Positions 1-16,011 of a stretch of 16,011 bases of DNA are shown here, piece after piece. The first letter of the stretch is position 1, and the number at the start of each line of letters is the position of its first letter. Location: IMG/VR virus record IMGVR_UViG_3300001765_000035, positions 1 to 16,011 of that record. One strand, written 5' to 3'. The notes beneath the pieces are model-generated. The model searched no databases. It worked only from the letters and a program-made list of their open reading frames with translations, and was not told the DNA's origin. The position numbers and the translations under genes were made by a program. The DNA is from a virus (lineage: Duplodnaviria; Heunggongvirae; Uroviricota; Caudoviricetes).

Positions 1-111
1 GACGATGATCTACTTCATAACTATACTGTTTCAAAAGCATTAGAATCAGTAGATTGGTCAAAAGAAAATTCAAATATTAAAATGATAGCTTGTACGTATC
101 ATTGTGGATGA
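1..111 (+). CDS. 3' end of an upstream hypothetical protein (partial, ...DDDLLHNYTVSKALESVDWSKENSNIKMIACTYHCG*)
   Basis: Frame 1 is open from base 1 to TGA at 109-111; the other two plus frames hit stops early. No recognisable motif. Confidence 0.4.
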   Translation, partial: DDDLLHNYTVSKALESVDWSKENSNIKMIACTYHCG

Positions 112-155
112 TATCATATATAAGATGTAATAATTAATCAAACAAAGGAATATAC

Positions 156-206
156 ATGGCTCTAGGTTGTAATATAATAATACATGATTCCTACTGTTAT
201 AATTAA
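156..206 (+). CDS. possible 16-aa micro-ORF (MALGCNIIIHDSYCYN)
   Basis: ATG at 156 preceded by AAAGGAA (144-150), the same SD type and spacing as the long genes; very short, so may be non-coding. Confidence 0.2.
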   Translation: MALGCNIIIHDSYCYN

Positions 207-300
207 TGGTATTCAATGTTATATATTTTACGATTCTGACTTAGATATAGGTTTTGGATTAAGGGAATATAGAACCTTGTTACGATATAATAGAGAATAA
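184..300 (+). CDS. possible 38-aa small protein (MIPTVIINGIQCYIFYDSDLDIGFGLREYRTLLRYNRE)
   Basis: ATG 184 to TAA 298-300, overlapping the end of the 156-206 micro-ORF; no clear SD of its own. Confidence 0.25.
   Translation: MIPTVIINGIQCYIFYDSDLDIGFGLREYRTLLRYNRE
195..203 (+). promoter_or_regulatory. extended -10 sigma70-type promoter element TGTTATAAT
   Basis: Exact TGnTATAAT match in an AT-rich region upstream of the structural operon. Confidence 0.4.
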
Positions 301-335
301 TATAATTCTACTATAATACTATAATATTATAGTAT
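301..335. promoter_or_regulatory. promoter cluster: three TATAAT (301-306, 312-317, 320-325), tandem TACTATAA x2 (309-324) and a perfect 20-bp palindrome ATACTATAATATTATAGTAT (316-335)
   Basis: Read directly from sequence; 50 nt upstream of the 386 start; AATTCTACTATAATAC (304-319) recurs at 6535-6550 with one mismatch. Confidence 0.55.
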
Positions 336-385
336 ATTTTACTGATAATAAATAAAATATAAGTTAAACAAAAAAAGGAAAATGC

Positions 386-1264
386 ATGGCAACAGTATAT
401 ACACAAGAAATAGTAGACAGTATAGCACCAGATGTAGTAGATATATTTAAGAGTTTGATGGAAGCTTCTACAGGAGTAGATAGTGTATATTTAAAAGCTA
501 AAGAAACACTTATTCAGATACTTAATGATGCTAATATTACAGGTGATCAGAAAGGTGAAATAGTAGCTCAAACTATATCTAATATGGTTAATGGTATTAC
601 CGCACAGTCTATGGACTCAGCGATGAAGATAGCTGTAGAAGACAGATTGGCTCCTTATACCTTAACTAAGATGAGAGAAGAAACTAAAGCTATTACTGCC
701 TCAGTATCTAAAATGGAATCTGATATTAAAAATACAGATGCAGAAATACTACTTAAAAGATTCCAAGGATGGAAGATACAAGGTGAAGTTAAAAGAGACT
801 TTGGTATTGATGCTCATGATCTTGCCGAAACTACTGTAATAGTACCATCCATAGAATACCATAATGAAGGTATTAAGTATGAAACTATAAGACAAGCTCA
901 AGCTAACACTTATGGAGCATACGCAGGGTCATTTAGAACTCATGGCTATGTAGATGTTACTACTGATGTGGATGGGATGTTAGGTGTATCAACTACAGGT
1001 AGTACTGCTATAGGTAAAGAAGGGCTTACATACTGGCAGACACGTGTAGCTGAAAGACAAGAACAAGGTTTTGATGATAACATGAGACAACACGTAGTTA
1101 ATAGTTCAGCAACAATGATCAGTATGTTACTTAGTACAGAAGCAAGTGGTATAGATTATACATCATACCTAAGTAAGTGGACACTAGCAGCTAACTACTT
1201 AAATTCTAGTGATGGATCTGTACAAAACACTAAAGGTGGTGGAACAGACGGAATTACACTATAA
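386..1264 (+). CDS. virion structural protein, N4 gp54-like (292 aa)
   Basis: SD AAGGA at 375-379; clean ORF. N-terminal IFKSLMEA...NITGDQKGEIV and C-terminal YWQTRVAERQEQGFDDNMR resemble motifs I recall from N4-like gp54-family proteins; position four genes upstream of the vRNAP block fits. Confidence 0.6.
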   Translation: MATVYTQEIVDSIAPDVVDIFKSLMEASTGVDSVYLKAKETLIQILNDANITGDQKGEIVAQTISNMVNGITAQSMDSAMKIAVEDRLAPYTLTKMREETKAITASVSKMESDIKNTDAEILLKRFQGWKIQGEVKRDFGIDAHDLAETTVIVPSIEYHNEGIKYETIRQAQANTYGAYAGSFRTHGYVDVTTDVDGMLGVSTTGSTAIGKEGLTYWQTRVAERQEQGFDDNMRQHVVNSSATMISMLLSTEASGIDYTSYLSKWTLAANYLNSSDGSVQNTKGGGTDGITL

Positions 1265-1283
1265 CGAAAGTTGTAGTGTATTT
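1255..1283 (+). terminator. stem-loop over the ORF386 stop codon, weak intrinsic terminator or RNA stability hairpin
   Basis: TACACTATAAC-GAAA-GTTGTAGTGTA: 11-bp stem with one U-G wobble, GNRA tetraloop, followed by only TTT. Confidence 0.55.
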
Positions 1284-1302
1284 AAATACTAAGTAGGTTT
1301 TA

Positions 1303-3150
1303 ATGTATATAGTACATGATAGATATACCCCACAAATACAAGAGTTTACTCATGCTTTACGTATTAAAAACATAGTACTTCGCCATTGGCCTAAAAGGAC
1401 TTTAGGTAGTGGAACAATAGTTTTAGACAAACTGTTTATATATATTAAAGGTCAAGGCGTAATTGATAGTGTAGCTACTCGTAAGTTATTTAAACTTATG
1501 AATATGAATCTCGAAGATCTTAAAAAAGAAGATTGGGATGGTGTAGAAAACTACTATGTGTATTGGCAACGATACGAGATGAGTTATATATTAACACTAG
1601 AAGAAGTAAAATATTATATAGAAATGCATTCTCCTTTAGTAGGTACAGAATCTGAATGGCAAGTAGCTACTGCTATATATAAACCTATGCAACCTGTCGC
1701 TGCTAGTATTACAGATGCGGAGATAATAGCTATGACTAAATCAGTTGAAACTGAAGCTATATCTTTTACTACTGAATACCATGATCCTGCTACCGGTAAT
1801 AGTGTACCTGTTAATAGGTTATTAGGAGTAGCCTTACTAGATACTTCAGACCTTCTATTTGAAAAACAAATTACTGTTAAAAGTAAAAAAATAGGTGCTA
1901 GAGAAACAGCACAACAGTTTAGAAGTTTTAACTATAGTCAGCCTGGAAGTATACTATCTAGTCTTATATTAGAAGCTAATATAGAAATAAAGTACAGACG
2001 AAAAGCTGTAGTAAACTTAGTCGATACTCCTATAAGTACTTTAGTAAATACTATAAAATTACGTCTAGAAAATATAAATAACCCTACAGGTATGTATACT
2101 AGTTTATATTATAACACATTAGTATCAAGACAACAACAAGGTACAGTATCTTCTACAGAAAATAGTATAAATGCTTCATTAAAAAATATGTATGAAGATC
2201 TAGTACCTATCGTAGAGGATAATGTATATATAGACGCTAGTGGTGGTTTAAGCCAAAGAGGTACGTATGTAAAAGTATCCGGTATAGAAAATATGAAAGC
2301 TGTAGAGTTTGTAAAATTCTTTGGTAAAAGTCTTAAGACTGGCTATACAGAAGAAGAAGCTGAATGGTATGAAGAACTAATTGCTATTGTATTAGCTGTA
2401 GCATTAATAGCTTTTGCTATATTCTCAGGCGGTGCAGCTATTGCAGCAGGTATGAGTCAAGCTTCTGCTATATTTGCTTTCTCATCAGCATTTGCTTTAG
2501 TACTTTCGGTAGGTACACTTGCGTTAACTGGATTAGCTTATGTTGCAGGAGAGCAAGGATGGCATGGATTTGCTGCTTATATAGGAAAAGTTATAAACTT
2601 CCTAGGAGTAGTAAGTACTATTGTAGGTGTTATATCTATATATGGAGCATTAAAGGTAGCTTTAGCAAAACAAGTAGCTACAGAAGCTTTACAGAGTGCT
2701 GGGAAAGAAGTAACAAATGAAGCAATAATAGAATTAACATCTACTACTATAAAGGATGTAGCTATTTCTGAAGTAGGTTTAAAAACACTGTTTGAAACAG
2801 CTAAGACAATGATATTCGGTAGTTCAACATTATCCTTAATGGATATATTCAACAAAACAGTATCTGCTGTAAACTGGGTAGCTTCCTACTTTATGGAAAA
2901 AGATATGGCTGAAATACAAGGTGATTTAACAGCACAGCAAGAAAAGAATGATGAAATGAAACAACAATATGAATTGTACAAAGGTAGTGTAGATAAAGTA
3001 TACTATAGTACTTCTGATTTGTATGAAGGATACTATAATCCATTCTTTAATGATTTTGAATTGGGTACCGGAGAAGGTCCGGATAGGTACTTTAAAACAA
3101 CAGGTACATGGCGCTGTCAAAACAGTTTAGAATACATATACCCTAACTAA
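1303..3150 (+). CDS. internal virion/ejection protein with multi-helix hydrophobic segment, N4 gp53-like (615 aa)
   Basis: YTEEEAEWYEE followed by about 90 hydrophobic/small residues (aa 359-450, LIAIVLAVALIAFAIFSGGA...GVISIYGAL) and a C-terminal coiled-coil-like stretch; syntenic with N4 gp53. Confidence 0.6.
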   Translation: MYIVHDRYTPQIQEFTHALRIKNIVLRHWPKRTLGSGTIVLDKLFIYIKGQGVIDSVATRKLFKLMNMNLEDLKKEDWDGVENYYVYWQRYEMSYILTLEEVKYYIEMHSPLVGTESEWQVATAIYKPMQPVAASITDAEIIAMTKSVETEAISFTTEYHDPATGNSVPVNRLLGVALLDTSDLLFEKQITVKSKKIGARETAQQFRSFNYSQPGSILSSLILEANIEIKYRRKAVVNLVDTPISTLVNTIKLRLENINNPTGMYTSLYYNTLVSRQQQGTVSSTENSINASLKNMYEDLVPIVEDNVYIDASGGLSQRGTYVKVSGIENMKAVEFVKFFGKSLKTGYTEEEAEWYEELIAIVLAVALIAFAIFSGGAAIAAGMSQASAIFAFSSAFALVLSVGTLALTGLAYVAGEQGWHGFAAYIGKVINFLGVVSTIVGVISIYGALKVALAKQVATEALQSAGKEVTNEAIIELTSTTIKDVAISEVGLKTLFETAKTMIFGSSTLSLMDIFNKTVSAVNWVASYFMEKDMAEIQGDLTAQQEKNDEMKQQYELYKGSVDKVYYSTSDLYEGYYNPFFNDFELGTGEGPDRYFKTTGTWRCQNSLEYIYPN

Positions 3151-3175
3151 GTTCAACAAGAGTTAAACATATTTA

Positions 3176-3184
3176 TGGTATACT
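3176..3184 (+). promoter_or_regulatory. extended -10 element TGGTATACT upstream of ORF3224
   Basis: TGn + TATACT in the 73-nt intergenic gap, about 40 nt before the ATG; SD AAAGGA at 3212-3217. Confidence 0.45.
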
Positions 3185-3195
3185 AAAAGTAATAA

Positions 3196-3211
3196 ATGTA
3201 AAGTTTTACAT
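3196..3211. repeat. inverted repeat ATGTAAA-GT-TTTACAT between promoter and SD
   Basis: Perfect 7-bp arms with a 2-nt spacer directly abutting the SD. Confidence 0.45.
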
Positions 3212-3223
3212 AAAGGATAAGAT

Positions 3224-3622
3224 ATGGCAGCAGGTGAATTATACCAAACAAATCCGGCATACGCAAGTATAGGTAATAGTGCTGATACATCAAACTTAGG
3301 TATGAGGGGCGATACAACTAGTTGGATGGATAGTATAGGCGGATATAAAGGAGTACAAGGTGCACTAGGTATAGGACAGCTTGGACTTGGTTTTATGGGT
3401 TATCTTGATAATAAGAAAACTGCAGAAATGCAACGTAAATTACTAGGTCAGCAATACGATACAAACGGATTCTTACTTGATCAAGCTAAAGGTAGACAAG
3501 CAGATATAGCTAGAGACTTCGGTGCTGGTGGTACTGCTCCGATTCAAGCTCAAGGTCTAGCTGCTAATACAGCACAAGCTCCTAGAACAGGATCTCCATT
3601 CGCACCAAAAACTGTAGTATAA
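3224..3622 (+). CDS. small Gly-rich internal virion protein, N4 gp52-like (132 aa)
   Basis: SD AAAGGA; Gly-rich hydrophobic segment GGYKGVQGALGIGQLGLGFMGY followed by a Q/K-rich helix; size and position match N4 gp52. Confidence 0.6.
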   Translation: MAAGELYQTNPAYASIGNSADTSNLGMRGDTTSWMDSIGGYKGVQGALGIGQLGLGFMGYLDNKKTAEMQRKLLGQQYDTNGFLLDQAKGRQADIARDFGAGGTAPIQAQGLAANTAQAPRTGSPFAPKTVV

Positions 3623-3632
3623 GGATTTATAT

Positions 3633-5753
3633 ATGCCTTTAAGACAAGACTTTGGATCATTCAGACAACCTGTAGATGCAACAAGCCCATTAATGAATGC
3701 GTTAACTAACGTACAGGCTATGTTTGCTAAACAAGAATCTGATGATGAAAACAAACGTAGGTATGATCAAGAACTACTAGTAAGAGAAGCTGCTCTTGCA
3801 GAAGATAAACGTAGATACGAAGAAGGTATGAAGTTTAAGAATTCGGCAGAAGCTAGAGCTATAGCCTCTGACGGTAGGGCAATCGACTTATATAACAGAA
3901 GTATAAAAGAACGTGACTCTACTGATTTATTTCTTCGAGAATTAAGTAAACCAAAACAAGAAATTGGTGGTTGGTTAAATCCTTCTAACACACTAGAGCA
4001 AAAAGCTATAGATGATATTGGAGTATTTTCTAGACATAACGATAAAGGCGAGCTTGTAACTTCCGATGTTAAAGGTACACCACTTAATCTACAGTCAGAG
4101 TATGTAGATTCGCAAGGTAAACCAATTACAAAAGAAGAAGCTGATACTCGTTTGGCTACTCAATTAAGCTTAGGAAGTCTTGCCGGTAATAGTCCATCTC
4201 AAGTTGAGTCAGAAGCAGATGTACTTCGTAGAGCTAATGAGACTGTACGAAATTCAGGTGGACTACCTACTCTTGGAATGCATCAAGAATTACTTCAAGC
4301 TGAAGCAGCTGAAAAAACAGTAGCTCAAAAAAGAATTGAAGAGATAGAAAAAACTAATGCAAAGTTACTTGCTGATAAAACTAAACTAGAATTAGACAGT
4401 AGCAAGACAGAGTATAAAGAAAGTAATAAAAGTTCTAAAGGTAGTGGTTCTGGTTATAAACTAGAAGACTGGACATTAGCTCAGGAAGCAGATGCTGAAA
4501 AAGTATCACCTTTAGGGTTAGGAGCAGATGCTTCTAAGATACGAGACGTATATGCACATGCACAAGAAAAAGGAATTCCTTTAGTAGTTGTACAAAATGC
4601 TGTAAGTAGAGCTACAAAAGCTGGTGCTAGTGGTACTTCTTTCGATAATACTGTTATATCAAAATATATACAAGAAGAAGAAAATGCTTTTAAAGGTAAA
4701 AAAGGCGGATACGCTGACGCTACTGGTTATAAAGCTAAAGTAGCAGCTACTGTTAACGCATATGATGCTGCTTATAATAAAGGTGCTGAAAAATTACGTC
4801 TATTAAATATGGATCCTGATGCAGTTAAAGCTGCACAAGCAGACGCATTATTTGCAGGTGTTATGGGTAAATACGCAAGTGCTAATAAACCTGCAGAAAC
4901 TAAAGCAGCTACAAACACAGCATCGTCAACTAATACTGCAAAAGTAGTTAAAGAACCTACAGTAGTACCTGTAGATAAACAAACAAAAGCAGCAGTTGCA
5001 AAAGTAGCACCTGTAGATATGGCTCAACACTCATTACCTGTTGGTTTCGGTACTGCAGATAGAGTTATCCCAAAACCGAAAGTAGTTCCTGGTTATGAAG
5101 TACTAGGAGATATTATAGGTTCTGGTGCTGTAAAGTTAGGTAACCATATAAAAGAAACAGTAAGTCAAGGTAAAGAACCAACAGCAGTAAAAGCAGGGCT
5201 TGGTTTGTTGGCTAATTCAGCAGCTGAATCTTTGAATATTGCAACAAGTCCTTATAATGTAATTAAAATGGGTACAGATGAATTCTTATTTGGAGAACAA
5301 AAAGGTTCTGTATTTACAGACTTTTCGAAAGATACTACAGCTAAAGCTGTAACACTATTAGAAAATGCTGGAGTTACAAATCCTACTACACAGCAAATAG
5401 CTATTATAGGTTCATCACTAGTAGGTCCTGGAGGAGCTTTAAAATCAGGAGTAAAATCAGCAAAAGAAGCAGCTACAGCTGTACGTAAAGTATTGACTGA
5501 TCCAGATTCTACTAAATTATTAAAAGGTTCACGTACGTTAAAAGCAGAGAAAGCAGCTGATGTTAAAGCAGCTGATCTTGGTGCAGCAACAGAATCGGCT
5601 AAGAATGATCTATACTTAATTGAAGAAGGATTCTCTAGCTTAAAAGGTGGGAATAGAAAACGTTATCAAGAGTTAGTAAAAGAAGCAACAGCAGCTGGAT
5701 ACACTAATGTAAAAGCTTATGTTAAAAAACAAATAGAATTGCTAGGTGAGTAA
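3633..5753 (+). CDS. large internal virion/ejection protein, N4 gp51-like (706 aa)
   Basis: SD AAGGA at 3621-3625 overlapping the upstream stop; Ala/Lys-rich helical protein with no Cys, an A/T/K/P-rich linker and a Gly-rich hydrophobic C-terminal patch; syntenic with gp51. Confidence 0.55.
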   Translation: MPLRQDFGSFRQPVDATSPLMNALTNVQAMFAKQESDDENKRRYDQELLVREAALAEDKRRYEEGMKFKNSAEARAIASDGRAIDLYNRSIKERDSTDLFLRELSKPKQEIGGWLNPSNTLEQKAIDDIGVFSRHNDKGELVTSDVKGTPLNLQSEYVDSQGKPITKEEADTRLATQLSLGSLAGNSPSQVESEADVLRRANETVRNSGGLPTLGMHQELLQAEAAEKTVAQKRIEEIEKTNAKLLADKTKLELDSSKTEYKESNKSSKGSGSGYKLEDWTLAQEADAEKVSPLGLGADASKIRDVYAHAQEKGIPLVVVQNAVSRATKAGASGTSFDNTVISKYIQEEENAFKGKKGGYADATGYKAKVAATVNAYDAAYNKGAEKLRLLNMDPDAVKAAQADALFAGVMGKYASANKPAETKAATNTASSTNTAKVVKEPTVVPVDKQTKAAVAKVAPVDMAQHSLPVGFGTADRVIPKPKVVPGYEVLGDIIGSGAVKLGNHIKETVSQGKEPTAVKAGLGLLANSAAESLNIATSPYNVIKMGTDEFLFGEQKGSVFTDFSKDTTAKAVTLLENAGVTNPTTQQIAIIGSSLVGPGGALKSGVKSAKEAATAVRKVLTDPDSTKLLKGSRTLKAEKAADVKAADLGAATESAKNDLYLIEEGFSSLKGGNRKRYQELVKEATAAGYTNVKAYVKKQIELLGE

Positions 5754-5754
5754 T

Positions 5755-6504
5755 ATGAATAACCCATTAAACATAAACCCTAAGAATACGCTAAAGCAGT
5801 TTCTACGTGATGATGTAAATGCTGTTGATCCTAAAGGATTAGCTACACAAGAGTATATGAAAAATCTTCAGCAGATGAATACAGAGTCATCCTTAACCTC
5901 CCCTCGTATGTTTCAAACATACTTTGGTGACGATAGTGCACCGGTACAGCAACAACGAGCTAAAGAAGCTGGTTTAGCTCATGCAGTAACGAATACTATA
6001 CCTAGTAACGGGGATAAATATAAAGAGATGTGGAGTCAAATGTACCAAACTACAAATGATCCAGTAAAAGAAGCTGCTTATTCACAACACGTAAAAGACT
6101 TATATGGTAAAGCTCCTAAAGAAGTTGAAATTAGAACAGCTATAGATAAGTCAATGCCAGCTTTTGCTGGTGAACTACAAAGTAGAGGCTTTGCTCCAAA
6201 TGAGATGAAAGAGTTATTGTACCAAACTGCATTACATGAATCAATGGGTGGTAGGTATAATAAACAAATTAATGGTCCAGCTAGAAGTGCTTGGCAAGTA
6301 GAGCCAAATACAGCGTATGATAATATACAAAATTATGGACACGCTATGGGTAAAGACTACGAAAAAGCTGTAGGTTATAGTAGAGAACAACTACAAGGTA
6401 TGAGCAAAGACCAAGTAGCTACATTACTTGAAACAGATCCCGCTTTCGCTGCATCACAAGCCGGACTATGGTACTTACGAAAAATGGATAAAAAGGGGGC
6501 TTAA
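5755..6504 (+). CDS. virion-associated lysozyme-like / lytic transglycosylase-like peptidoglycan hydrolase (about 249 aa)
   Basis: C-terminal domain ELLYQTALHESMGGRYNKQINGPARSAWQVEPNTAYD...AASQAGLWYLRK fits the lysozyme-fold pattern (catalytic Glu in HES at 6238-6240, G-x-x-Q-type strand as AWQVEP). Start moved from GTG 5746 to ATG 5755 because the SD AGGTG at 5744-5748 gives 6-nt spacing. Confidence 0.75.
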   Translation: MNNPLNINPKNTLKQFLRDDVNAVDPKGLATQEYMKNLQQMNTESSLTSPRMFQTYFGDDSAPVQQQRAKEAGLAHAVTNTIPSNGDKYKEMWSQMYQTTNDPVKEAAYSQHVKDLYGKAPKEVEIRTAIDKSMPAFAGELQSRGFAPNEMKELLYQTALHESMGGRYNKQINGPARSAWQVEPNTAYDNIQNYGHAMGKDYEKAVGYSREQLQGMSKDQVATLLETDPAFAASQAGLWYLRKMDKKGA

Positions 6505-6509
6505 GTACT

Positions 6510-6536
6510 TTCGTGTAAAGCCGGTCTTTATACGAA
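6510..6536 (+). terminator. stem-loop after the muralytic gene (weak terminator or processing hairpin)
   Basis: TTCGTGTAAAG-CCGGT-CTTTATACGAA: 11-bp stem with one G-U wobble, 5-nt loop, poor U-tract (TTAT). Confidence 0.45.
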
Positions 6537-6550
6537 TTATACTATAATAC
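6535..6550 (+). promoter_or_regulatory. promoter-like motif AATTATACTATAATAC upstream of the vRNAP gene
   Basis: Contains TATAAT (6543-6548); 15/16 identical to 304-319; SD AGGA at 6570-6573 precedes ATG 6582. Confidence 0.55.
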
Positions 6551-6581
6551 CTTAATAAAATATACCTATAGGAATTAATAT

Positions 6582-9500
6582 ATGGCAAGTAACCCTTATT
6601 TAGCAATCGCAGAAGCAGAACTTAACGATAGGCTAAATGGGCCTACTTTACTTCCAGAACCTACATCATTAACATCAGATAAAACTTCATTATTAGCAAA
6701 TAGAAAAGAAGAGAAAGTAAGTCGTCTTGGTAAGTTAGCTCAAGGAGCTGATCTACAGAATAATACCTATTCAGAAATAGGTAACGGACTTTTAGAAAGT
6801 AATGCCAACAAAGTGTGGAATGACTTAAGTGGTGCACAACTACAAGATGCTTTTAGTGATGCTGCTGATAAATCATTACGTCAAGATCCAGTTACAGGTA
6901 AAGTATACTCTAACGTTACAGGTGAAGAATTCACCGGAGATACTAGACGTATGTACATGTACGGAACAAAAGATGATCCTAATGTAGTTAAAGTAGGATT
7001 GGCTAGAGGAGATTTACCTAGCTCTGATTATAGGTATACTCCAGGACAAGCTGAAGCTGAAGGTTATAACACAGGTAAAAACGGTTATGGGTGGGATGCT
7101 GGTGAGAATGGTGTAGACTTAAAAAAGAACTATATGGATATGCTACTTCCATACGAAACTGCTACTGCTTTAGAAGGTATGGTACATGGTAATAAAACAG
7201 CACTAGAAAATAGACAATTTCCTGATGTTATGGCTCCTGAAGCATTAGCTCATGCAAGTGGTGTTAGTGAATACTATAATGATGTATCAGGTATACTTGG
7301 TGATACTAGAGGTATGACACCAGAAGAACTTACTCAAGCTGAGAATAATATACTTGCTGAGAAAGAACTACTTCCGGGAGCAGAAAGCTGGAGTTCAAAG
7401 CATGGACAAAGTGGTGGATCATCATTTGCTGACTTTAAACCAGATCCTGGTATGCAACTACCAGAAGCAATGGCTAGTGGATACGCTAACCTATCTTCAC
7501 GAGGAGCAGAACTTGTAGGTAGTTTAGTAGAACTAGCTGGAGAAGGTGTTGAAAAATTAGATGAATGGCAGAACGGTTATAACAAAGAGAACCCTGCTTC
7601 TGAAGAAAGTAATGTATCTGAAAGTGCATTAAAAAGTATTGGTAGTTTCTTAAAAGAAGAAGGCGCACAGATACAGACTGAACAACAAGACTGGAGAGAA
7701 AAAGGTAAGTATGATGAACTTGTAGGTTATGACACATCTTCTGTACAAGGTTTTGGTAAAGAGCTTGCAGACATGGTAGAAAAAGGTGATTACCTAGAAG
7801 CTGTAGGTCACATGTTCGATACACGTTCAATAACAGCATTTACTCAGTCTTTACCTGAAATGGTTGTAATGGCTAACCCATTCGGTCTAGGTGGAGTTGT
7901 ATCTGCTAACATAGCAAGTAACCTAAACGAACTAGAAGATAGTGCCGCTAAAGCAGGTATTGAATTATCAGATGAAGACAAGATGACATCTGCCGCACTA
8001 AGCACTGTAGGTACATTACTTGATAGATTTGGTGATAAGGTTACATTAGGATCCGCTAAAGGTTTGTCTACTATGATGAAAGGTATGCCTGAAGGTGTAC
8101 AGAATAAAGTAATAGGAATGTTCGGAGATCGTTTAACTGCAGTAGGTGTAGAGATTGCTTCAATAGCCCCTAAAGCGGCAGTAGAAGGTATTACAGAAAC
8201 AGCACAGACTGTATTAGAGAATAAAGCAACTGATGCTAGTAAGATGAATACTGAACTTACAGATAAAGAACAACGAGAAGCATTAGAAGCTGGTATGATT
8301 GGTATGGCTGCAGGTGGTGTTCCATCAGCTGCTACAGCTACAAAAGCTGCTATAAGTAACTTTACAGGAATGTCAGTAGAACAGCTTAAAGCTGAAATGG
8401 ATCGTAGAAAACAAACTAGAAATAGTACACGCCCTCAAGTAGGTACAGATATTCCTGCAGTAGCTCCTACAATGGATGATATTGCAAATATAGATGTAGA
8501 GATCGGTAATGATGGTATAGAAGGTACACTAGCAAGTGTTATGGAACTACAAAACAGAGTAGAGGATTTTGAAGATTCAGACGAATTATCCCCGGAAGTT
8601 AAAGCAGAGTACGCTAAACGTAAAGAGACATTAACATTAGCATTTGATGATATGTCAAACGATGAGCCTATTAAATTCGGTAGTACTGCTGATGCAGAAA
8701 GTTTCTTACTTACTGTACTAAAAGGTAAAACATTAGATGATGTTATTGAACCTAAATTAGAAAGCTTTGCAAAAATTAATAATATATCTTCTGAAAGTCT
8801 TACTAAGATTAAAAACTTAATTACTGTAGAACAAGAAGCTATCGGTGGTAAACGTGGAGCAGCAAGTTATTTAGCAGAAGCTAAAGTCTATATGAAAGAT
8901 CCTGAAAAGAATTCTAAAAAGATTCAAAAACTAGGTACCCGTATGGGTAGTTTCTACGATAAAGAAGTAGAGTATAAATCTGCAGTAGACAGCGTTATTG
9001 ATGAATTAGGGACAATACTTAAGACTAGAGAAGCAGGTGTAAAAGCTACACAGACAAGTATTAAGCGTATTCTTCCTATAAGTAACAATCGTAAAAAAGA
9101 ACATAAGATAGAATTTAAAGTAAATAGTCTTGAAGATATACAACAAAGTCTAGTTAACGCTAAAAAAATATCAGATGCTACAGGTAGAGTATTAACAAAC
9201 CTTGAAGACGGTATGGTTACAATCGGTAAAGAAACTACTAAAGCTAATGTTACTCTTGATGGATTTGATGGAGGTATCACAGTACCGGCTGCAACAAAAC
9301 CTAAGAATCAAAAGTTTAGAGATAATGATCAAAAACTGTATAGCGAACATGATGTGAGTAAAGTTATACTTGATACTAACCACGGATATAAGTGGAATGA
9401 GTATAAAAAAGTAGCAAGTAATAGTAAGCTTGTAAATACTAAAAAATATACTTCTGAAGATGTAGTAGTTGTAAACAGTTCTACTCCTGCAAAAAGCAGA

Positions 9501-12500
9501 AATATAAAAGGTTATGTACACAAGTTAGATAAAGCAACTATAAATGAAATAGTAAAAGCTAAAAAAGCTGGAGCAACTATAGTAATGGATAGTCAATTAG
9601 ATAACAAAGCAAAGGTAGCAATAAGAACTGCTATAACTATTGGACATACTTACTCAGCAGCAGATGCTGATAGTAAAGTGTATAAACCAAAAGAAAAAGC
9701 TATAGTAGAGAAAGCTGAAATAGATGCTGTAAAAGCTAAAGCAGCAGATAAAGCAAAAGCTAAATCAAAAGCTAATGGTAATTTAACACTAAGTATAGCA
9801 GCATTAATAAACGACATATCTGAAATAGATGATATAAGTACAAAAGCTAAAAAAGATACTTCCTTTAAAGAAGCAGCTACTAATGCTAAAGAGTATTATA
9901 GTGCAACAGATACAGAAGATGTACGTCAAGATAAGATGATAAAAGCTTCTACAAGTGCTATAAAAAAGCAAGTACAAGAACTTAGCAATGGCTATAGAAA
10001 AGCTATGGTAGACAATGATTCAGAACTAACAAGTATGGATATAGCCGATGTAAATAAGAAATGGCTTGTAGGCAAAGATTACTCAACAGTAGCAAAGAAG
10101 ATCGAAGAACTTGCTGTTAAAAAAGCTACAGACGATATTAGTAATGTTAATGCTAAAGTAAATATGCTTAGTAAATGGAAAGGTATTCTAGCTACAGCTA
10201 AAGATAAAGGCGGTATATCTGAAACAGATGCTATAAACGCATTGCTTACAAGTAAAGAATATGGACATATTACAGAAGCTAAAAAGGTTGTTGAGAACAT
10301 ACTTAAAAAGACAGGTATAAGTCTTAAAAGATATAGAGATAGTATTACAGATAAGAAAATAGGTATGACTTTAACACTAGACATAAATGAGATAGTTGAA
10401 CTTAAAGGTACGCCTACAGTGTTTAATACACTACCTGTAGATAATATGGGATCTAAGCTTTATGAAATATTCAATAATGCTAAAAAAGTATTTACAGCTC
10501 CTAACGTAGATGTAGTACAAGGTAATACTAAAAAAGATCCTTCTATTAAGACTAAAGAAGAACATAAAAAAGCCGGAGGTTTTGCTACCTTATTTGATTA
10601 TTCATTGTATAACGATCCTGCTAGAATGTTACTTATGGAAGAAGTTAACGATAAGACAGTACTTAATGATAACGTAGTTGCAGCAATGACAACTGCTGTA
10701 ATAGAACAGATAGCGATCAACGGTAGAATGATCTCAGATAAGTATAAGACTAAAGAAGACGTAGCTAGAATGCACGGAATAGAAGCTTACTCTATAGGTA
10801 ATAGAGAAGCTATTGATCTTGGTAAACATGGTATGTTAAAGAAAACTTTAGCTGATGATATGGGAAAAGCTATAGCTAAACACTTAGGTATTAAGCGTAA
10901 AGCAAATAGTGAAGTAGCAGATACAGAACAGTATGATAGATTAATAGCTGACTTAGGACAGTATGCTATACTACTTGGTGTAGATATGAAAGTATTCGAT
11001 ATGGATGAAATGTCTGTAGAAGAATATATGCATCTACTAGGTAGGGATGGTGCATTAGATGACAGTGCAGAGAATATAACTGGAACTACTGTAGGTTTTG
11101 TAAAGATTCCTGGTGATATCTATGATGATGTTATAGAAGAATACAAAGAATCATTTGAAGTATTGAAAGAACAATTACCTGATGTATCTACTATACGAAG
11201 AGAACCTTCAGATGTAGAGATAGGAAAAGGTACTAAAGAAGCACGTAAGAATACTATATCAAAAGATATATCTGGGTTTAAGCCTGCAGAAGAAGCTAAG
11301 ACAACATTAGAAAATCTAATGAATCAAGAGTATAGTGTAAACTTTGAATTAGTAAATCAGGTACTTGATAATCAGGATGATATCAAAGCTTTACTTGGTT
11401 GGATTGATATGGAAAATACGGATGCTCTAGAAGCATTATCATACGAAAGCAGAGAAATACAACCTGCAATCAATATGGATATAGAAAGATCTATAGAAGA
11501 ATTATCGTTACTAAAAGATAAGTATACTGATAATGAAGATGTAGGTTTATTCTTTGAATGGTTCTATACTAAGAACGGTCGTTATATGATGGATAGTAAT
11601 ACAATTAATCCTCAGACAGACAAACAGCTACATAGATTTATAGTAACACCTAAAGAGCATAAAGTAATGTATGGTGTTAGCTATAAAGAAGATGTACCTC
11701 AGTTTACAGTTACGGATTGGGTAGGACAGTCTAACACAGAACTAAAAGCTAAAGCTGATGTAGATCCTAAAGTAGTTCAACAAAATATGTATTACGCACT
11801 AGCACAAGGTTTAGGTATTGCTACAGATAAAAAAGAGAGTAGCAAATTCTATACACAAATGCAAAGATTGCTTGAAGGTACTGCGAATAGTAAATTAGAG
11901 ATAATCTATGAAGGTCCTAAAGATATACAGATTATAGAAGATGCTAAAATAGCTGACATACGTAATATATTTATGAAGAAAGGTGAATTACGTATTAACG
12001 TTAAAGATAACACTAATCCTGATAACTACATAAAGATTGAAGTAGAACATTTTACACATGCGCTACAAGCGTTTAGTATACTAGAGAAGATTGAAAATAA
12101 TGATACAAGCATAACTAGCTCAATTACAGCAGAGTTCGATGCGGTAACTTCAGGTTTCGCTATTAAGTTAGCACAGATGCCGGTTATAGGAAGAACGTTA
12201 AGATACGCACTTAAAGTAGGTATAATACCAAAAGTATTGATAAATGCTGATGATGCTAAAATGAGTGCGATGTTTAACGGGTTTACCGGTGGAGAATCAT
12301 GGGCTGACTTTAAGAAAGACCATAAAGAACTATTGGACTATTTAGATACAAAACCTAAAGTAAGTATGAATGATATCCTTGATGGTAAGATCAGAGATTC
12401 ATACCAGACAGCAGCAGAACAAATGGTAGATATAGATTCAAAACTAATAGAGAGTTCATTAAGCAGTAAAGAACTACAGCAAGCTTATCCTGATTTTGTA

Positions 12501-13922
12501 AACTATGCAGGTGTTTTAGCTGATATGCGTAAAGGACATGGTACTGAGGGTAAAAGTACATGGGATATACTTTATGGAATGTTGCCTAAGCATATAGCCG
12601 GAACTGCTGTTAAGTCTGATTTGCGTACATTGTTTAAGAATCCTTTCATGATCTTTAACTATAGTGCTTCTATTAAGAGTATTAGAATATCACTAGCGAA
12701 TAAACTAGCTACAGATATATTAGAGAAAGTTTTAGCTAATAAAGAGAAAACTGTTATTGAAGAATTATTTAAAAGTTTAAATATGAATATTGGTACAGGT
12801 AAACTACAGGTAGACGGTAAGAAGATTACTACTGTAGATGAATTACGTAAAGCAATTCAAGAAGTACCTGCAGATAGAATAATGTTAGGTAATAGTAAAA
12901 AACATAACCTACATACATTGCTGAGTACTCTTATAAATGCTTCATATGGTAGTAAGTTAGAAACAGTATTAACTAAAGAGTTTAAACCATTCTTAGATAT
13001 ACAAGCTGTAATTAACAACTCCTTTAAAGGTATGTTTGAAGTATTCAACATAGAGTATACAAAAGCTTTAGAGGACAAAAGAGCAGCTAACGATGGTATA
13101 TTAACAGTACAAGGTAAATTAGAAGTATTAATGGCTATGCAAGATGCATTCCCGGCAATTAAGGGACCATTCACTAAAGATGATATGAAAGCGTTAATAC
13201 CTATATATAAAACCAAATCAGGTACACCCGACAAAAGTGTAGGTGCTAAGACGTGGTTATCAAAAGGATGGGCTAAAAAGAACCTTGGTGAAAGTCAAGA
13301 GACATTAAACATCTGGCATAAGATTAAAGAGTTTGATGCAGCTATAAGTGCTGGTTCAGTTGTACCAATACACTTTATAGATGGTGCATTAATGGGTAGA
13401 ACATTAAATCATATGACTAGTGAATATAAAAGTGCTATGACAACATCAATCCATGATGCGGTTATGCCTCCATTGCTATTAGCAAATGAGGTTACAAGAC
13501 AGTACAATAAAGAATTTATAGATATGTCAGATGAGTATAGTGTTATAGATGAAATAGTAGCTGGATTAGAACGTGTATTAAAAAACAAGTCTAATGACGA
13601 AGCTTATAACGCAACTAATAGTTATAACGTAAATGGTAAGTGGGAAACACTTTCTGTATCAGACTTTGTAAAGCAAGCATTAAAAGATGCTAAAGCTCAA
13701 CAAAAAAAGATTATCAAAGGTAGAAAACAGTTTAAAGAAGTATTGGATGAAGACGGTGCCTACGTAATGCACATGGCAGGTATGTCTGAAGGTGTATTTG
13801 AACATCCAGGAAAGCCTAAGTTGAAAAGTAGTAAACTACAGGAACAGGTTGACAAGGGTAATATACCATTTGAAGCAGCAAAAGAATTTGAAGATAGCAT
13901 AGGGAAGTGTAATGGCTTGTAA
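6582..13922 (+). CDS. vRNAP: virion-encapsidated single-subunit DNA-dependent RNA polymerase, N4 gp50-like (N-terminal region plus polymerase domain, 2446 aa)
   Basis: T7/N4 RNAP motifs in order: TKNGRY-MMDSNTINPQTDK (DxxGR equivalent, R1667, nt 11568-11624), motif A EFDAVTSG (D1853, 12132-12155), motif B RTLFKNPFMIFNY (R2015, K2019, Y2027; 12624-12662), PIHFIDG (13365-13385), motif C IHDA (D2292, 13449-13460). The motif B to C distance of 273 aa is N4-like rather than T7-like. A ~1240-aa N-terminal extension precedes the polymerase. Confidence 0.93.
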   Translation: MASNPYLAIAEAELNDRLNGPTLLPEPTSLTSDKTSLLANRKEEKVSRLGKLAQGADLQNNTYSEIGNGLLESNANKVWNDLSGAQLQDAFSDAADKSLRQDPVTGKVYSNVTGEEFTGDTRRMYMYGTKDDPNVVKVGLARGDLPSSDYRYTPGQAEAEGYNTGKNGYGWDAGENGVDLKKNYMDMLLPYETATALEGMVHGNKTALENRQFPDVMAPEALAHASGVSEYYNDVSGILGDTRGMTPEELTQAENNILAEKELLPGAESWSSKHGQSGGSSFADFKPDPGMQLPEAMASGYANLSSRGAELVGSLVELAGEGVEKLDEWQNGYNKENPASEESNVSESALKSIGSFLKEEGAQIQTEQQDWREKGKYDELVGYDTSSVQGFGKELADMVEKGDYLEAVGHMFDTRSITAFTQSLPEMVVMANPFGLGGVVSANIASNLNELEDSAAKAGIELSDEDKMTSAALSTVGTLLDRFGDKVTLGSAKGLSTMMKGMPEGVQNKVIGMFGDRLTAVGVEIASIAPKAAVEGITETAQTVLENKATDASKMNTELTDKEQREALEAGMIGMAAGGVPSAATATKAAISNFTGMSVEQLKAEMDRRKQTRNSTRPQVGTDIPAVAPTMDDIANIDVEIGNDGIEGTLASVMELQNRVEDFEDSDELSPEVKAEYAKRKETLTLAFDDMSNDEPIKFGSTADAESFLLTVLKGKTLDDVIEPKLESFAKINNISSESLTKIKNLITVEQEAIGGKRGAASYLAEAKVYMKDPEKNSKKIQKLGTRMGSFYDKEVEYKSAVDSVIDELGTILKTREAGVKATQTSIKRILPISNNRKKEHKIEFKVNSLEDIQQSLVNAKKISDATGRVLTNLEDGMVTIGKETTKANVTLDGFDGGITVPAATKPKNQKFRDNDQKLYSEHDVSKVILDTNHGYKWNEYKKVASNSKLVNTKKYTSEDVVVVNSSTPAKSRNIKGYVHKLDKATINEIVKAKKAGATIVMDSQLDNKAKVAIRTAITIGHTYSAADADSKVYKPKEKAIVEKAEIDAVKAKAADKAKAKSKANGNLTLSIAALINDISEIDDISTKAKKDTSFKEAATNAKEYYSATDTEDVRQDKMIKASTSAIKKQVQELSNGYRKAMVDNDSELTSMDIADVNKKWLVGKDYSTVAKKIEELAVKKATDDISNVNAKVNMLSKWKGILATAKDKGGISETDAINALLTSKEYGHITEAKKVVENILKKTGISLKRYRDSITDKKIGMTLTLDINEIVELKGTPTVFNTLPVDNMGSKLYEIFNNAKKVFTAPNVDVVQGNTKKDPSIKTKEEHKKAGGFATLFDYSLYNDPARMLLMEEVNDKTVLNDNVVAAMTTAVIEQIAINGRMISDKYKTKEDVARMHGIEAYSIGNREAIDLGKHGMLKKTLADDMGKAIAKHLGIKRKANSEVADTEQYDRLIADLGQYAILLGVDMKVFDMDEMSVEEYMHLLGRDGALDDSAENITGTTVGFVKIPGDIYDDVIEEYKESFEVLKEQLPDVSTIRREPSDVEIGKGTKEARKNTISKDISGFKPAEEAKTTLENLMNQEYSVNFELVNQVLDNQDDIKALLGWIDMENTDALEALSYESREIQPAINMDIERSIEELSLLKDKYTDNEDVGLFFEWFYTKNGRYMMDSNTINPQTDKQLHRFIVTPKEHKVMYGVSYKEDVPQFTVTDWVGQSNTELKAKADVDPKVVQQNMYYALAQGLGIATDKKESSKFYTQMQRLLEGTANSKLEIIYEGPKDIQIIEDAKIADIRNIFMKKGELRINVKDNTNPDNYIKIEVEHFTHALQAFSILEKIENNDTSITSSITAEFDAVTSGFAIKLAQMPVIGRTLRYALKVGIIPKVLINADDAKMSAMFNGFTGGESWADFKKDHKELLDYLDTKPKVSMNDILDGKIRDSYQTAAEQMVDIDSKLIESSLSSKELQQAYPDFVNYAGVLADMRKGHGTEGKSTWDILYGMLPKHIAGTAVKSDLRTLFKNPFMIFNYSASIKSIRISLANKLATDILEKVLANKEKTVIEELFKSLNMNIGTGKLQVDGKKITTVDELRKAIQEVPADRIMLGNSKKHNLHTLLSTLINASYGSKLETVLTKEFKPFLDIQAVINNSFKGMFEVFNIEYTKALEDKRAANDGILTVQGKLEVLMAMQDAFPAIKGPFTKDDMKALIPIYKTKSGTPDKSVGAKTWLSKGWAKKNLGESQETLNIWHKIKEFDAAISAGSVVPIHFIDGALMGRTLNHMTSEYKSAMTTSIHDAVMPPLLLANEVTRQYNKEFIDMSDEYSVIDEIVAGLERVLKNKSNDEAYNATNSYNVNGKWETLSVSDFVKQALKDAKAQQKKIIKGRKQFKEVLDEDGAYVMHMAGMSEGVFEHPGKPKLKSSKLQEQVDKGNIPFEAAKEFEDSIGKCNGL

Positions 13923-16011
13923 TAAAAATGAAATACTAAAAAATGTACGTGATAAACATAACTTAACTATGGCTCAGATTAAACTACTAGAATCACTTAT
14001 GAAAGATGTAGTTGAAGACTTACGCTTAGGAGACGAAGCAGTAAAATCTTCTTCAAAAGATGATGTATATGAATACATTGTAGATTCTTATGAAAGTACT
14101 AAAAAAGATTTTATTGCAGAACTAAATAAAGAGAAGCCTAAGATACAGAATACTAAAAGTGAATCTACAGGATATGTAGTTCCTATTACTATAGAAAGAA
14201 TAGTAGGTCGTACAGCTTATTACACATATAAAGATGCTAATAAAGTATATCAGATACCGGCTAATTCTAAATTCATTAAATTAGATAATGTAGATTTAGA
14301 TACACGTATCAGAGAGTTTGCTCATGTAGCAGCTACTTATGGTAATACACAAGGTGCTAATAAAGCATGGAATAGCTTTGAAGATATCGAAAAGAACATA
14401 CACAAAGATCCTGAAAGAATGGTAGCTCTACTTGAAGAGTTACATGAAGCAGATGGTAAAAAAGAATCTGATGAACACATGAGTCAATTACGAACATTGT
14501 TTAGCACATTAAGATCTGATTTCTTCACAAAGATGGACGTATATGTAAGTAAAGATGTAGAAGGACGTGGTGGTATAGCGAGTAATACGAAGATAGGTGT
14601 ATACTTTTCAAATGTAGCTAAGCAAGCAAATAATGAAATGGGTGCTGCAGAAATATATGCACATGAAATCGTACACGCAATAACACAGTTTTCATTAGAA
14701 TCTGCCTCTATAAACAGAGAAGCTGCTAAGCTAGTTAAAGAACTTGATTACTTGATGGAATCTGTAATGGATCGTTTAACTTGGAAAGAGCTTATGCCTA
14801 AAGAAAGCATAGACGCAGTTCGTGAAGAACGTATAGCTAAAGAGTTGTATCAGTATATATTTACCAATAAAGAAGCAAGAGCAGAATTTATAGCCCATGC
14901 ATTGACAAACCCTATACTATCAGAAAAACTAAAGCTGATGAACCTAAAGCCTAAGCATGAAACTAAGAATATCTTAGAAGTACTTGTAGATTGGTTTACC
15001 TCTTTAGTAGATTTAATAATGGGTAACTATGAGTTTAACGATAGTAAGAAGACAGCTTATGAACAAGCTATGAAGTTGACAATGGCTTTAGCAGAAATCA
15101 ATAACAATAAGTTAAATGAGGTAAAGCAAAAGAACATTGTAAATACAATAACAGATGGTATTCAAAGCGGTAATGAAATGATAGGCGAAGCTATAGATAA
15201 AGTAATCAATAAATTCAAAGATGAAAATATTACGATTGCAAATCTACCAGCAAACGCAACACTGGCTGAACGTATACCATGGACAGCTAAAGCCTTATGG
15301 GTAATAATGAATAACAAAGAGTATAGAAACTACTTTGGTCATGTTATGTCTGCCTGGGGTGTAACCCCTGAAGGTATGTTAAGAGACTGGGGAAGAGCAT
15401 TCATGGAAACTAATGAAATGCAGAAAGCAGTAGAATGGTTAGGTACAACTTCAGATAAGATTGACCAAGCTAGAAACAGAGTAATACTTGAAGCTAAAAA
15501 ATTAGTATTAGATGGATTTGGGGAAACTAAACTATCAGAAACTGAAGAAGAAGCTTTAACAGCAATACTTGTAGATACAGATATACAAAGTATATTTTTT
15601 GATAAACAATATACCAATAAGAAAATACGTAGTATGTTAGAAGATGATGCTGAGCTAGAAAAACAGCTTAACTGGGCTAAGAGTAGATTAGAAGATATGG
15701 ATAGTGTACATAGACATTGGCATATTAACCAAGCACATGTACTAGGTGTATATATGGCTACAGGTGAGATAAGTACAGGAATGAACTTTAACTCATGGAA
15801 CATAGCTAGAGGATTACAGTCATCAGAAATTAAAAAAGTAAAAGGTAATCGTGGAAGATTACTAATGAAAGAAATAGATACAGTTGCCACACTAACAGCC
15901 TTGAAATACTCAAACAAAGAACAGAAGAAGCAAGTTGCAGAGTTAATGAGGGTAGAGTGGGGTAGACGTGGAGTAAAGAATTTAGTACATATCCATAAAG
16001 GATTTATAGAT
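13912..16011 (+). CDS. vRNAP C-terminal-domain-like protein with zincin metallopeptidase motif (partial, at least 700 aa, runs off window; absent from the supplied ORF track)
   Basis: ATG 13912 (MACNKNEILKNVRDKH...) with SD AGGGA at 13901-13905, 11-nt overlap with the vRNAP stop. I translated frame 1 to base 16011 with no stop. Contains YAHEIVHAIT (HExxH at 14662-14676) and EFIAHALTNP (14884-14913); downstream blocks such as NQAHVLGVYMATG and IDTVATLTALKY resemble what I recall of N4-like vRNAP C-terminal regions. Confidence 0.85.
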   Translation, partial: MACNKNEILKNVRDKHNLTMAQIKLLESLMKDVVEDLRLGDEAVKSSSKDDVYEYIVDSYESTKKDFIAELNKEKPKIQNTKSESTGYVVPITIERIVGRTAYYTYKDANKVYQIPANSKFIKLDNVDLDTRIREFAHVAATYGNTQGANKAWNSFEDIEKNIHKDPERMVALLEELHEADGKKESDEHMSQLRTLFSTLRSDFFTKMDVYVSKDVEGRGGIASNTKIGVYFSNVAKQANNEMGAAEIYAHEIVHAITQFSLESASINREAAKLVKELDYLMESVMDRLTWKELMPKESIDAVREERIAKELYQYIFTNKEARAEFIAHALTNPILSEKLKLMNLKPKHETKNILEVLVDWFTSLVDLIMGNYEFNDSKKTAYEQAMKLTMALAEINNNKLNEVKQKNIVNTITDGIQSGNEMIGEAIDKVINKFKDENITIANLPANATLAERIPWTAKALWVIMNNKEYRNYFGHVMSAWGVTPEGMLRDWGRAFMETNEMQKAVEWLGTTSDKIDQARNRVILEAKKLVLDGFGETKLSETEEEALTAILVDTDIQSIFFDKQYTNKKIRSMLEDDAELEKQLNWAKSRLEDMDSVHRHWHINQAHVLGVYMATGEISTGMNFNSWNIARGLQSSEIKKVKGNRGRLLMKEIDTVATLTALKYSNKEQKKQVAELMRVEWGRRGVKNLVHIHKGFID

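Follow-up and report, generated by a model that had tools for sequence, protein, structure and literature searches.

The virus record IMGVR_UViG_3300001765_000035 (Caudoviricetes; IMG/VR) encodes an N4-type virion RNA polymerase (vRNAP) as two separately translated proteins that are cut at the linker between the RNA polymerase domain and the C-terminal domain, and each protein carries a single cysteine, placed at its cut end. The stretch analysed here, positions 1 to 16,011 of that record (the window; GC content 34%), belongs to an 80-kb genome that is 78% complete and contains the whole of the upstream open reading frame (ORF A) and the first 700 codons of the downstream one (ORF B). From the behaviour of the two cysteines across homologs, we propose that a head-to-tail inter-chain disulfide between the tail of protein A and the head of protein B probably replaces the peptide linker.

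A virion RNA polymerase cut at its hinge

ORF A and ORF B meet at positions 13901-13926, which read AGGGAAG TGTAAT GGCT TGTAAT AAA, with the hexamer TGTAAT at 13908 and again at 13918. The following features define the two genes and their junction:

6582..13922, plus strand: ORF A, 2446 amino acids, ending ...IGKCNGL, with C2443 as its sole cysteine
13455..13457, plus strand: codon of the motif C catalytic aspartate D2292 of ORF A, in ITSIHDA, aligned with N4 gp50 D1948
13901..13907, plus strand: AGGGAAG, a Shine-Dalgarno-like purine run 4 nucleotides 5′ of the ORF B ATG, with a presumed function as such
13908-13910, plus strand: TGT codon of ORF A C2443, after which three residues follow, N-G-L
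13912..16011 in the window and to 17916 in the genome, plus strand: ORF B, 1334 amino acids, a separate gene for the C-terminal domain of the virion RNA polymerase
13918-13920, plus strand: TGT codon of ORF B C3 (MAC...)
13920..13922, plus strand: TAA stop of ORF A, inside ORF B, giving an 11-nucleotide gene overlap

These readings uphold what the original prediction, made from the letters of the window alone, had said of the junction: its sequence and both hexamers are exact, a cysteine count confirms C2443 as the only cysteine of the 2446-residue protein, and deletion of 10 nucleotides at the junction does join the two frames as K-C-N-K-N-E. ORF B begins MACNKNE, and its C3, predicted to be the only cysteine in the 700 residues visible in the window, proves on reading the genome to be the only one in all 1334.

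ORF A and ORF B lie in different frames, and the format of N4 gp50, one polypeptide of ~3500 amino acids, is absent here; most nearest homologs likewise consist of two genes and not of a single ~3500-residue chain. Compared with the junctions of relatives, the 11-nucleotide overlap is particular to this genome. The remaining ORFs of the genome contain about 1% cysteine, from which ~36 cysteines are expected in the 3780 residues of the two proteins; only two are seen, both at the junction, and the cysteine suppression that is a trait of ejection operons is thus present. Taken as a protein feature, the pair of junction cysteines lies far beyond chance. Taken as a nucleotide feature, the TGTAAT repeat is weak. 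The exact repeat pattern is expected 0.01 times per window, short-range hexamer repeats (7-16 nucleotides downstream) begin at 102 of the 16011 positions of this AT-rich DNA, and because both proteins need a cysteine codon here a TGT-TGT pair is nearly forced.

By sequence, both proteins belong to the N4-type vRNAP family. ORF A matches PHROG 2206 ‘virion RNA polymerase’ (E = 1.9e-52; profile positions 172-1991 of 3406) and its protein cluster carries PF21867 (vRNAP_dom_2), and it is predicted to comprise the N-terminal domain and the T7-like RNA polymerase domain of the enzyme. By tblastn, ORF B is similar to the C-terminal part of vRNAPs annotated in N4-like phages of Vibrio and Alteromonas, and its residues 532-1271 align with N4 gp50 residues 2741-3446 (E = 6e-5). 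In a profile of the last 450 residues of ORF A homologs, D2292 corresponds to N4 D1948 and the end of ORF A falls at about N4 residues 2111-2127; the HDA of motif C (H295, D296 and A297) is invariant or nearly so in alignments A1 and A2, and 154 residues follow D2292 in ORF A, compared with 155 from D1948 to residue 2103 in N4. The N4 structure contains a disordered linker, residues 2102-2123, between the RNA polymerase and the C-terminal domain (PMC13434306), and because the end of ORF A maps onto this linker the enzyme is cut at a natural hinge.

The likeness to N4 is found at the profile level only, with very low identity. A Pfam search of all seven window ORFs, a blastn search against phages and scans of IMG/VR with single proteins gave no match, and PDB sequence and profile searches returned only chance-level matches to hemagglutinin coiled coils.

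Cysteines at chain breaks across relatives

The tail of ORF A, used as a search query, retrieved 118 proteins, almost all of them 2200-2750 amino acids long. Exactly one cysteine is present in 113 of 114 A-type homologs, and it lies 0-10 residues from the C-terminal end (0-4 residues in 111 of them). When the last 450 residues of 40 sequences are aligned (983 columns, mean column identity 21%), the terminal cysteine is the sole invariant column. On the B side, an exhaustive profile-free search gave 1413 representative clusters, with B-sized proteins making up most of the best 150; a cysteine stands at residues 3-7 in 123 of 131 B-type homologs and is the only cysteine in 122, and C3 is invariant in a 42-sequence B-type alignment. 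When A and B types are pooled, non-terminal cysteines number only 5 of 242, in 464,353 residues. Even at ~24% identity the terminal cysteines are kept, amid drift of the adjacent residues and of the codons used, and identities of 24-53% exclude near-identical copies as the source of this conservation.

At the DNA level we compared 23 junctions in 20 loci. Cysteines flank both sides of all 23, whereas the TGTAAT hexamer repeat occurs in one, that of the present genome. The cysteine codons on the two sides are unlike (TGT versus TGC) at 9 of the 23 junctions and the codon that follows varies; the distance from one cysteine codon to the other ranges from 10 to 43 nucleotides, and all three frame relations occur, four junctions remaining in the same frame across stops. 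At all 23 junctions the downstream piece starts from an ATG of its own, 2-4 codons ahead of its cysteine and mostly behind a purine-rich run, which in many relatives is AAGGA- or GGAG-like, and the interval from upstream stop to downstream ATG extends from an overlap of a few nucleotides to a gap of 28, being positive in most relatives. Selection acts on the cysteine residue and not on the DNA repeat. The tail KCN is common to ORF A and the homolog P0003 and the head MACNK is common to ORF B and the homolog P0122, indicating that the two Cys-Asn dipeptides were inherited separately; two independently conserved dipeptides, together with AT-rich codon bias, yield TGTAAT twice as a by-product. 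The original prediction had offered two models, a disulfide that would conserve the cysteines but not the repeat and a translational hop that would conserve the repeat, and it is the first expectation that is borne out, with the cysteines kept on both sides of every junction and in more than 230 homologs.

The same rule extends to polymerases that are cut twice. The two closest relatives, as well as a third lineage, carry an additional gene between A and B, and the resulting middle pieces, of 352, 174 and 419 amino acids, contain exactly two cysteines each, one at residue 3-4 and one 1-4 residues from the C-terminal end; two further homologs of the 352-residue piece have the same two-cysteine pattern. 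One middle piece is a vRNAP module (PHROG 2206, positions 2093-2250) with a cysteine at both ends and an HExxH motif of its own (HEMVH), and where A and a middle module are fused the sole cysteine is found at the new end. The middle-piece loci (L021:443-1501, L023:977-1501 and L024:14157-15416) differ in length and sequence between lineages, and because the middle piece varies in this way modules seem to have been inserted or swapped at the hinge. In the window no gene lies between the pieces, and the arrangement is not that of a gene split by a homing endonuclease. The intervening ORFs of relatives were also considered as homing endonucleases, an identity we rejected: they gave no HNH, GIY-YIG or LAGLIDADG match, and one of them is the vRNAP module.

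Where the chain is whole, the junction cysteines are missing. None of eight one-piece relatives has a junction cysteine and six of the eight have no cysteine at all; a polar low-complexity linker occupies the place of the junction. Two one-piece relatives contain internal cysteines, P0270 (3811 amino acids) six and P0267 (3496 amino acids) two, and have lost the cysteine-free trait. A tree built from the C-terminal domain places the eight fused forms at scattered points among the 124 split forms, and its well-supported branches force at least eight changes of state. Fused forms that lack the junction cysteines and are scattered in this manner suggest that the clasp comes and goes whenever the chain is cut or joined. 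In the Shigella phage pSb-1 (NC_023589; L029), which serves as a negative control, the vRNAP is recorded as three ORFs, gp101-gp103, with no cysteine at any junction, and since these breaks lack cysteines they are probably sequencing errors. The overall pattern is therefore one cysteine on each side of every break, none elsewhere, and loss upon fusion.

A candidate disulfide clasp and its rivals

We propose that in the finished extracellular virion the two terminal thiols would form an inter-chain disulfide, and that this bond would stand in for the absent peptide linker, keeping the pieces together as one nearly linear thread that could be passed along the portal and tail as the phage ejects its contents. 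The chain stubs beyond the cysteines are 0-4 residues long in A and 2-3 residues long in B, and terminal cysteines that leave such short stubs fit a near-linear chain passing the tail. On arrival in the reducing cytoplasm the bond would be opened, and the polymerase would come away from its C-terminal domain. Because virions assemble in a reducing cytoplasm and no phage oxidase was found, the bond would be expected to form after release and to reopen on entry; the place and time of its formation, its opening and its part in ejection are steps that we infer. The purge of cysteines from ejection proteins has been ascribed to passage through the periplasm (PMC11445570, PMC3821669). Packaging and injection of the ORF A and ORF B products are themselves putative, and an indirect pointer is the pair of polypeptides seen on gels of the Alteromonas phage AltAD45 (PMC3821669).

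Several points weigh against this proposal. Assembly in the reducing cytoplasm means that oxidation must wait for release, and no phage sulfhydryl oxidase (Erv1/ALR), thioredoxin or glutaredoxin was found in the 78%-complete genome. Some of the relatives were recovered from habitats poor in oxygen. The cysteine rule has exceptions, as P0178 and the B piece of L024 carry extra internal cysteines and 7 of the 131 B-type calls have no cysteine. Two shorter cysteine-free calls outside those seven are truncation artefacts, one at a contig end and one at a 100-N gap that hides an MSC start. A complex prediction from the last 450 residues of A and the first 500 residues of B, run with alignments, gave a score of 0.17 and a mark of 0.32, a result that weighs on neither side. 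The model leaves unexplained why a split with a clasp would be preferred over a peptide linker, and coordination of a metal ion, or bonding to other partners, would be just as feasible for two thiols.

The last of these points can be stated as an alternative in its own right, in which the terminal cysteines are functional but do not link A to B, serving instead as a metal clasp, in A-A or B-B bonds, or in attachment to some third part of the virion, for instance a portal or core protein. Conservation tells that the thiols matter and travel with the breaks, not what their bonding partner is; lysine, histidine and glutamate are common beside the terminal cysteines, and a metal might be shared among copies; virions hold several polymerase copies (PMC13434306). 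We nevertheless regard this reading as unlikely. One cysteine per cut end and two in each middle piece is the arrangement that pairwise end-to-end linking predicts, attachment to a third partner gives no account of why the cysteines vanish upon fusion, and two thiolates alone would make a poor metal site, with no conserved histidine or cysteine neighbours to complete it.

Two further readings concern the nucleic acid. Translational bypassing or frameshifting from the first TGT-AAT to the second would yield some full-length fusion, as in T4 gene 60, and in this genome alone the likeness to that system is real, with matched codons flanking a short gap between the frames of a split enzyme: the hexamers 10 nucleotides apart permit re-pairing and the product is in frame. 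A single tRNA-Cys reads both TGT and TGC, so unlike cysteine codons are not strictly exclusive of a hop from cysteine to cysteine. The hexamer match is confined to one of the 23 junctions, however, and the distances and frame relations described above vary, while the closest relatives keep all the cysteines although an entire gene (174-352 amino acids) stands between their A and B. Unlike T4 gene 60, the present junction has GGC and no stop after the take-off codon pair (the codon after AAT), it has no stem-loop (the fold of 13880-13970 has a minimum free energy of -4.6 kcal/mol and a z-score of +1.19, weaker than shuffled sequences), its geometry is not conserved, and each downstream piece has its own start. 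Any matched codon would serve for a hop, which leaves the invariant cysteine unexplained, and AltAD45 gels show two separate polypeptides (PMC3821669). The hop put forward in the original prediction is accordingly very improbable. Scarcely more can be said for its fallback, that the repeat and the two cysteines are a neutral scar of gene fission or a coincidence, or for the related idea that the split is an assembly error; the arrangement could in principle have arisen at a stroke from a 10-nucleotide insertion that brought both a stop and a start, and some published ‘split’ vRNAPs, such as that of pSb-1 with no junction cysteine, are probably sequencing errors, yet we hold an origin of this kind to be extremely doubtful here. 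The split is ancient and widespread, as the 1413 B-piece clusters attest, the cysteines persist to ~24% identity in a family otherwise purged of them, the Cys-Asn dipeptides were inherited separately, and this protein pair has also been recorded on other contigs. An inter-chain disulfide is thus the reading we prefer for the junction cysteines.

Comparison with known systems and neighbouring genes

The vRNAPs of N4 (gp50) and other Schitoviridae, for example gp71 of Pseudomonas phage DEV, are giant polymerases of the injected type that combine an N-terminal domain with a T7-like RNA polymerase domain and a C-terminal domain, as here. N4 gp50 (3500 amino acids), gp51 and gp52 contain no cysteine, and the likeness to the present proteins therefore includes cysteine suppression (PMC11445570); the difference is that here two genes are cut at the linker before the C-terminal domain, with one cysteine per cut end. 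A closer parallel is found in the Alteromonas phages vB_AmaP_AD45-P1 to P4 (Efbeekayvirus), which have the same two-gene layout with the break in the same place (PMC3821669). As here, AltAD45-P1 has a single cysteine 2 residues from the end of A and one at residue 4 of B, and the AltAD45 polymerase tail is ~35% identical to the tail of ORF A.

The AltAD45 split was published in 2013, with the stop codon re-sequenced and polypeptides of 270 and 175 kDa on gels, and its authors took the cysteines as a sign of non-injection and did not remark on the junction pair (PMC3821669). That paper counts two cysteines in the large ORF (PMC3821669), a count we did not adopt, as the record gives one per ORF. 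A 2023 survey treated vRNAP splits as miscalls or read-through and dropped proteins shorter than 2500 amino acids (PMC10654107), and the DEV paper, which quantified cysteine suppression, dismissed near-end cysteines of ‘truncated’ predictions as errors (PMC11445570). We found no description of the junction cysteine rule in the literature searched.

The same head-to-tail rule is seen in the crAss-like Cellulophaga phage phi14:2 (L031), the one crAss-like genome that we examined for it, in three consecutive giant virion proteins, g067-g066-g065. The only cysteine of g067 (1797 amino acids) is its last residue, g066 (2180 amino acids) has cysteines only at residue 3 and one from the end, and g065 (1421 amino acids) has one only at residue 3; according to their annotation all three were detected in virions by mass spectrometry, and g066 is annotated as the catalytic RNA polymerase subunit. 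Phage phi14:2 belongs to a different order from the virus of the window, no sequence similarity was found between the two, and we take its polymerase, on the strength of its published structure, to have a fold different from the N4 type. We give an even chance to the broader proposal that head-to-tail chaining through terminal cysteines is a general, previously undescribed cargo strategy of podophages in at least two orders (N4-like Schitoviridae and crAss-like Crassvirales), producing a redox-cleavable thread in which an S-S link is freely swapped with a peptide linker. If such swapping does take place, fission and fusion of ejected cargo would be nearly neutral.

Two-chain AB toxins follow the same logic, with a disulfide that tethers the catalytic and delivery chains outside the cell and a reducing cytosol that separates them. 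The resemblance is one of analogy and not of homology: AB toxins start as a single chain that a protease then nicks, and their bond is located within folded domains, whereas here the chains are products of separate genes and the cysteines stand at their extreme termini.

For N4-like and crAss-like phages alike, it has yet to be settled how proteins of several hundred kilodaltons are threaded through a tail channel of 3-4 nm and in which order they pass (PMC13434306, PMC10172136). A clasp of the kind proposed here, if it exists, would offer a simple physical answer to how cargo leaves as one thread and separates inside the cell, and would explain published ‘broken’ vRNAP genes as real. It also suggests a rule for annotation, by which cysteines on both sides of a break mark a true split and their lack, as in pSb-1, a sequencing error, and the cysteine-free trait of ejection proteins becomes a readable code. 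The cultured phages AltAD45 and phi14:2 make the clasp testable by gel.

ORF B contains a second conserved element, which lies outside the clasp, and further cysteine-free genes precede the polymerase:

14662..14676, plus strand: HEIVH, an HExxH zinc-peptidase-like motif, ORF B residues 251-255
3224-3622: ORF 5′ of the polymerase, no cysteine
3633-5753: ORF 5′ of the polymerase, no cysteine
5746-6504: ORF 5′ of the polymerase, no cysteine

Across 42 B-type homologs (alignment A3), E252 and H255 are nearly invariant, and the motif is predicted to be a zincin-like peptidase site in the putatively injected C-terminal piece; a zinc motif has likewise been predicted where gp71-C of DEV begins (PMC11445570). 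A second conserved block of ORF B, E-F-x-A-H-x-L-T-N-P, lies ~70 residues downstream of HEIVH. The first two upstream ORFs (132 and 706 amino acids) match N4 gp52 and gp51 by size and order, and the third (252 amino acids; PHROG 3108) is an extra cysteine-free gene that may encode a further ejected protein. Further upstream, ORF 1303-3150 (615 amino acids), a virion module of unknown function (PHROG 25216) that corresponds by position to N4 gp53, itself not cysteine-free, has a single cysteine 10 residues from its C-terminal end; the ORF that follows has no cysteine, which places this 615-residue protein outside the pair rule. Inside ORF B an antisense ORF (15339-16070, minus strand, 243 amino acids) has 12 cysteines (4.9%), a content typical of a non-coding frame, and this number shows how strongly the coding frame of ORF B avoids cysteine codons.

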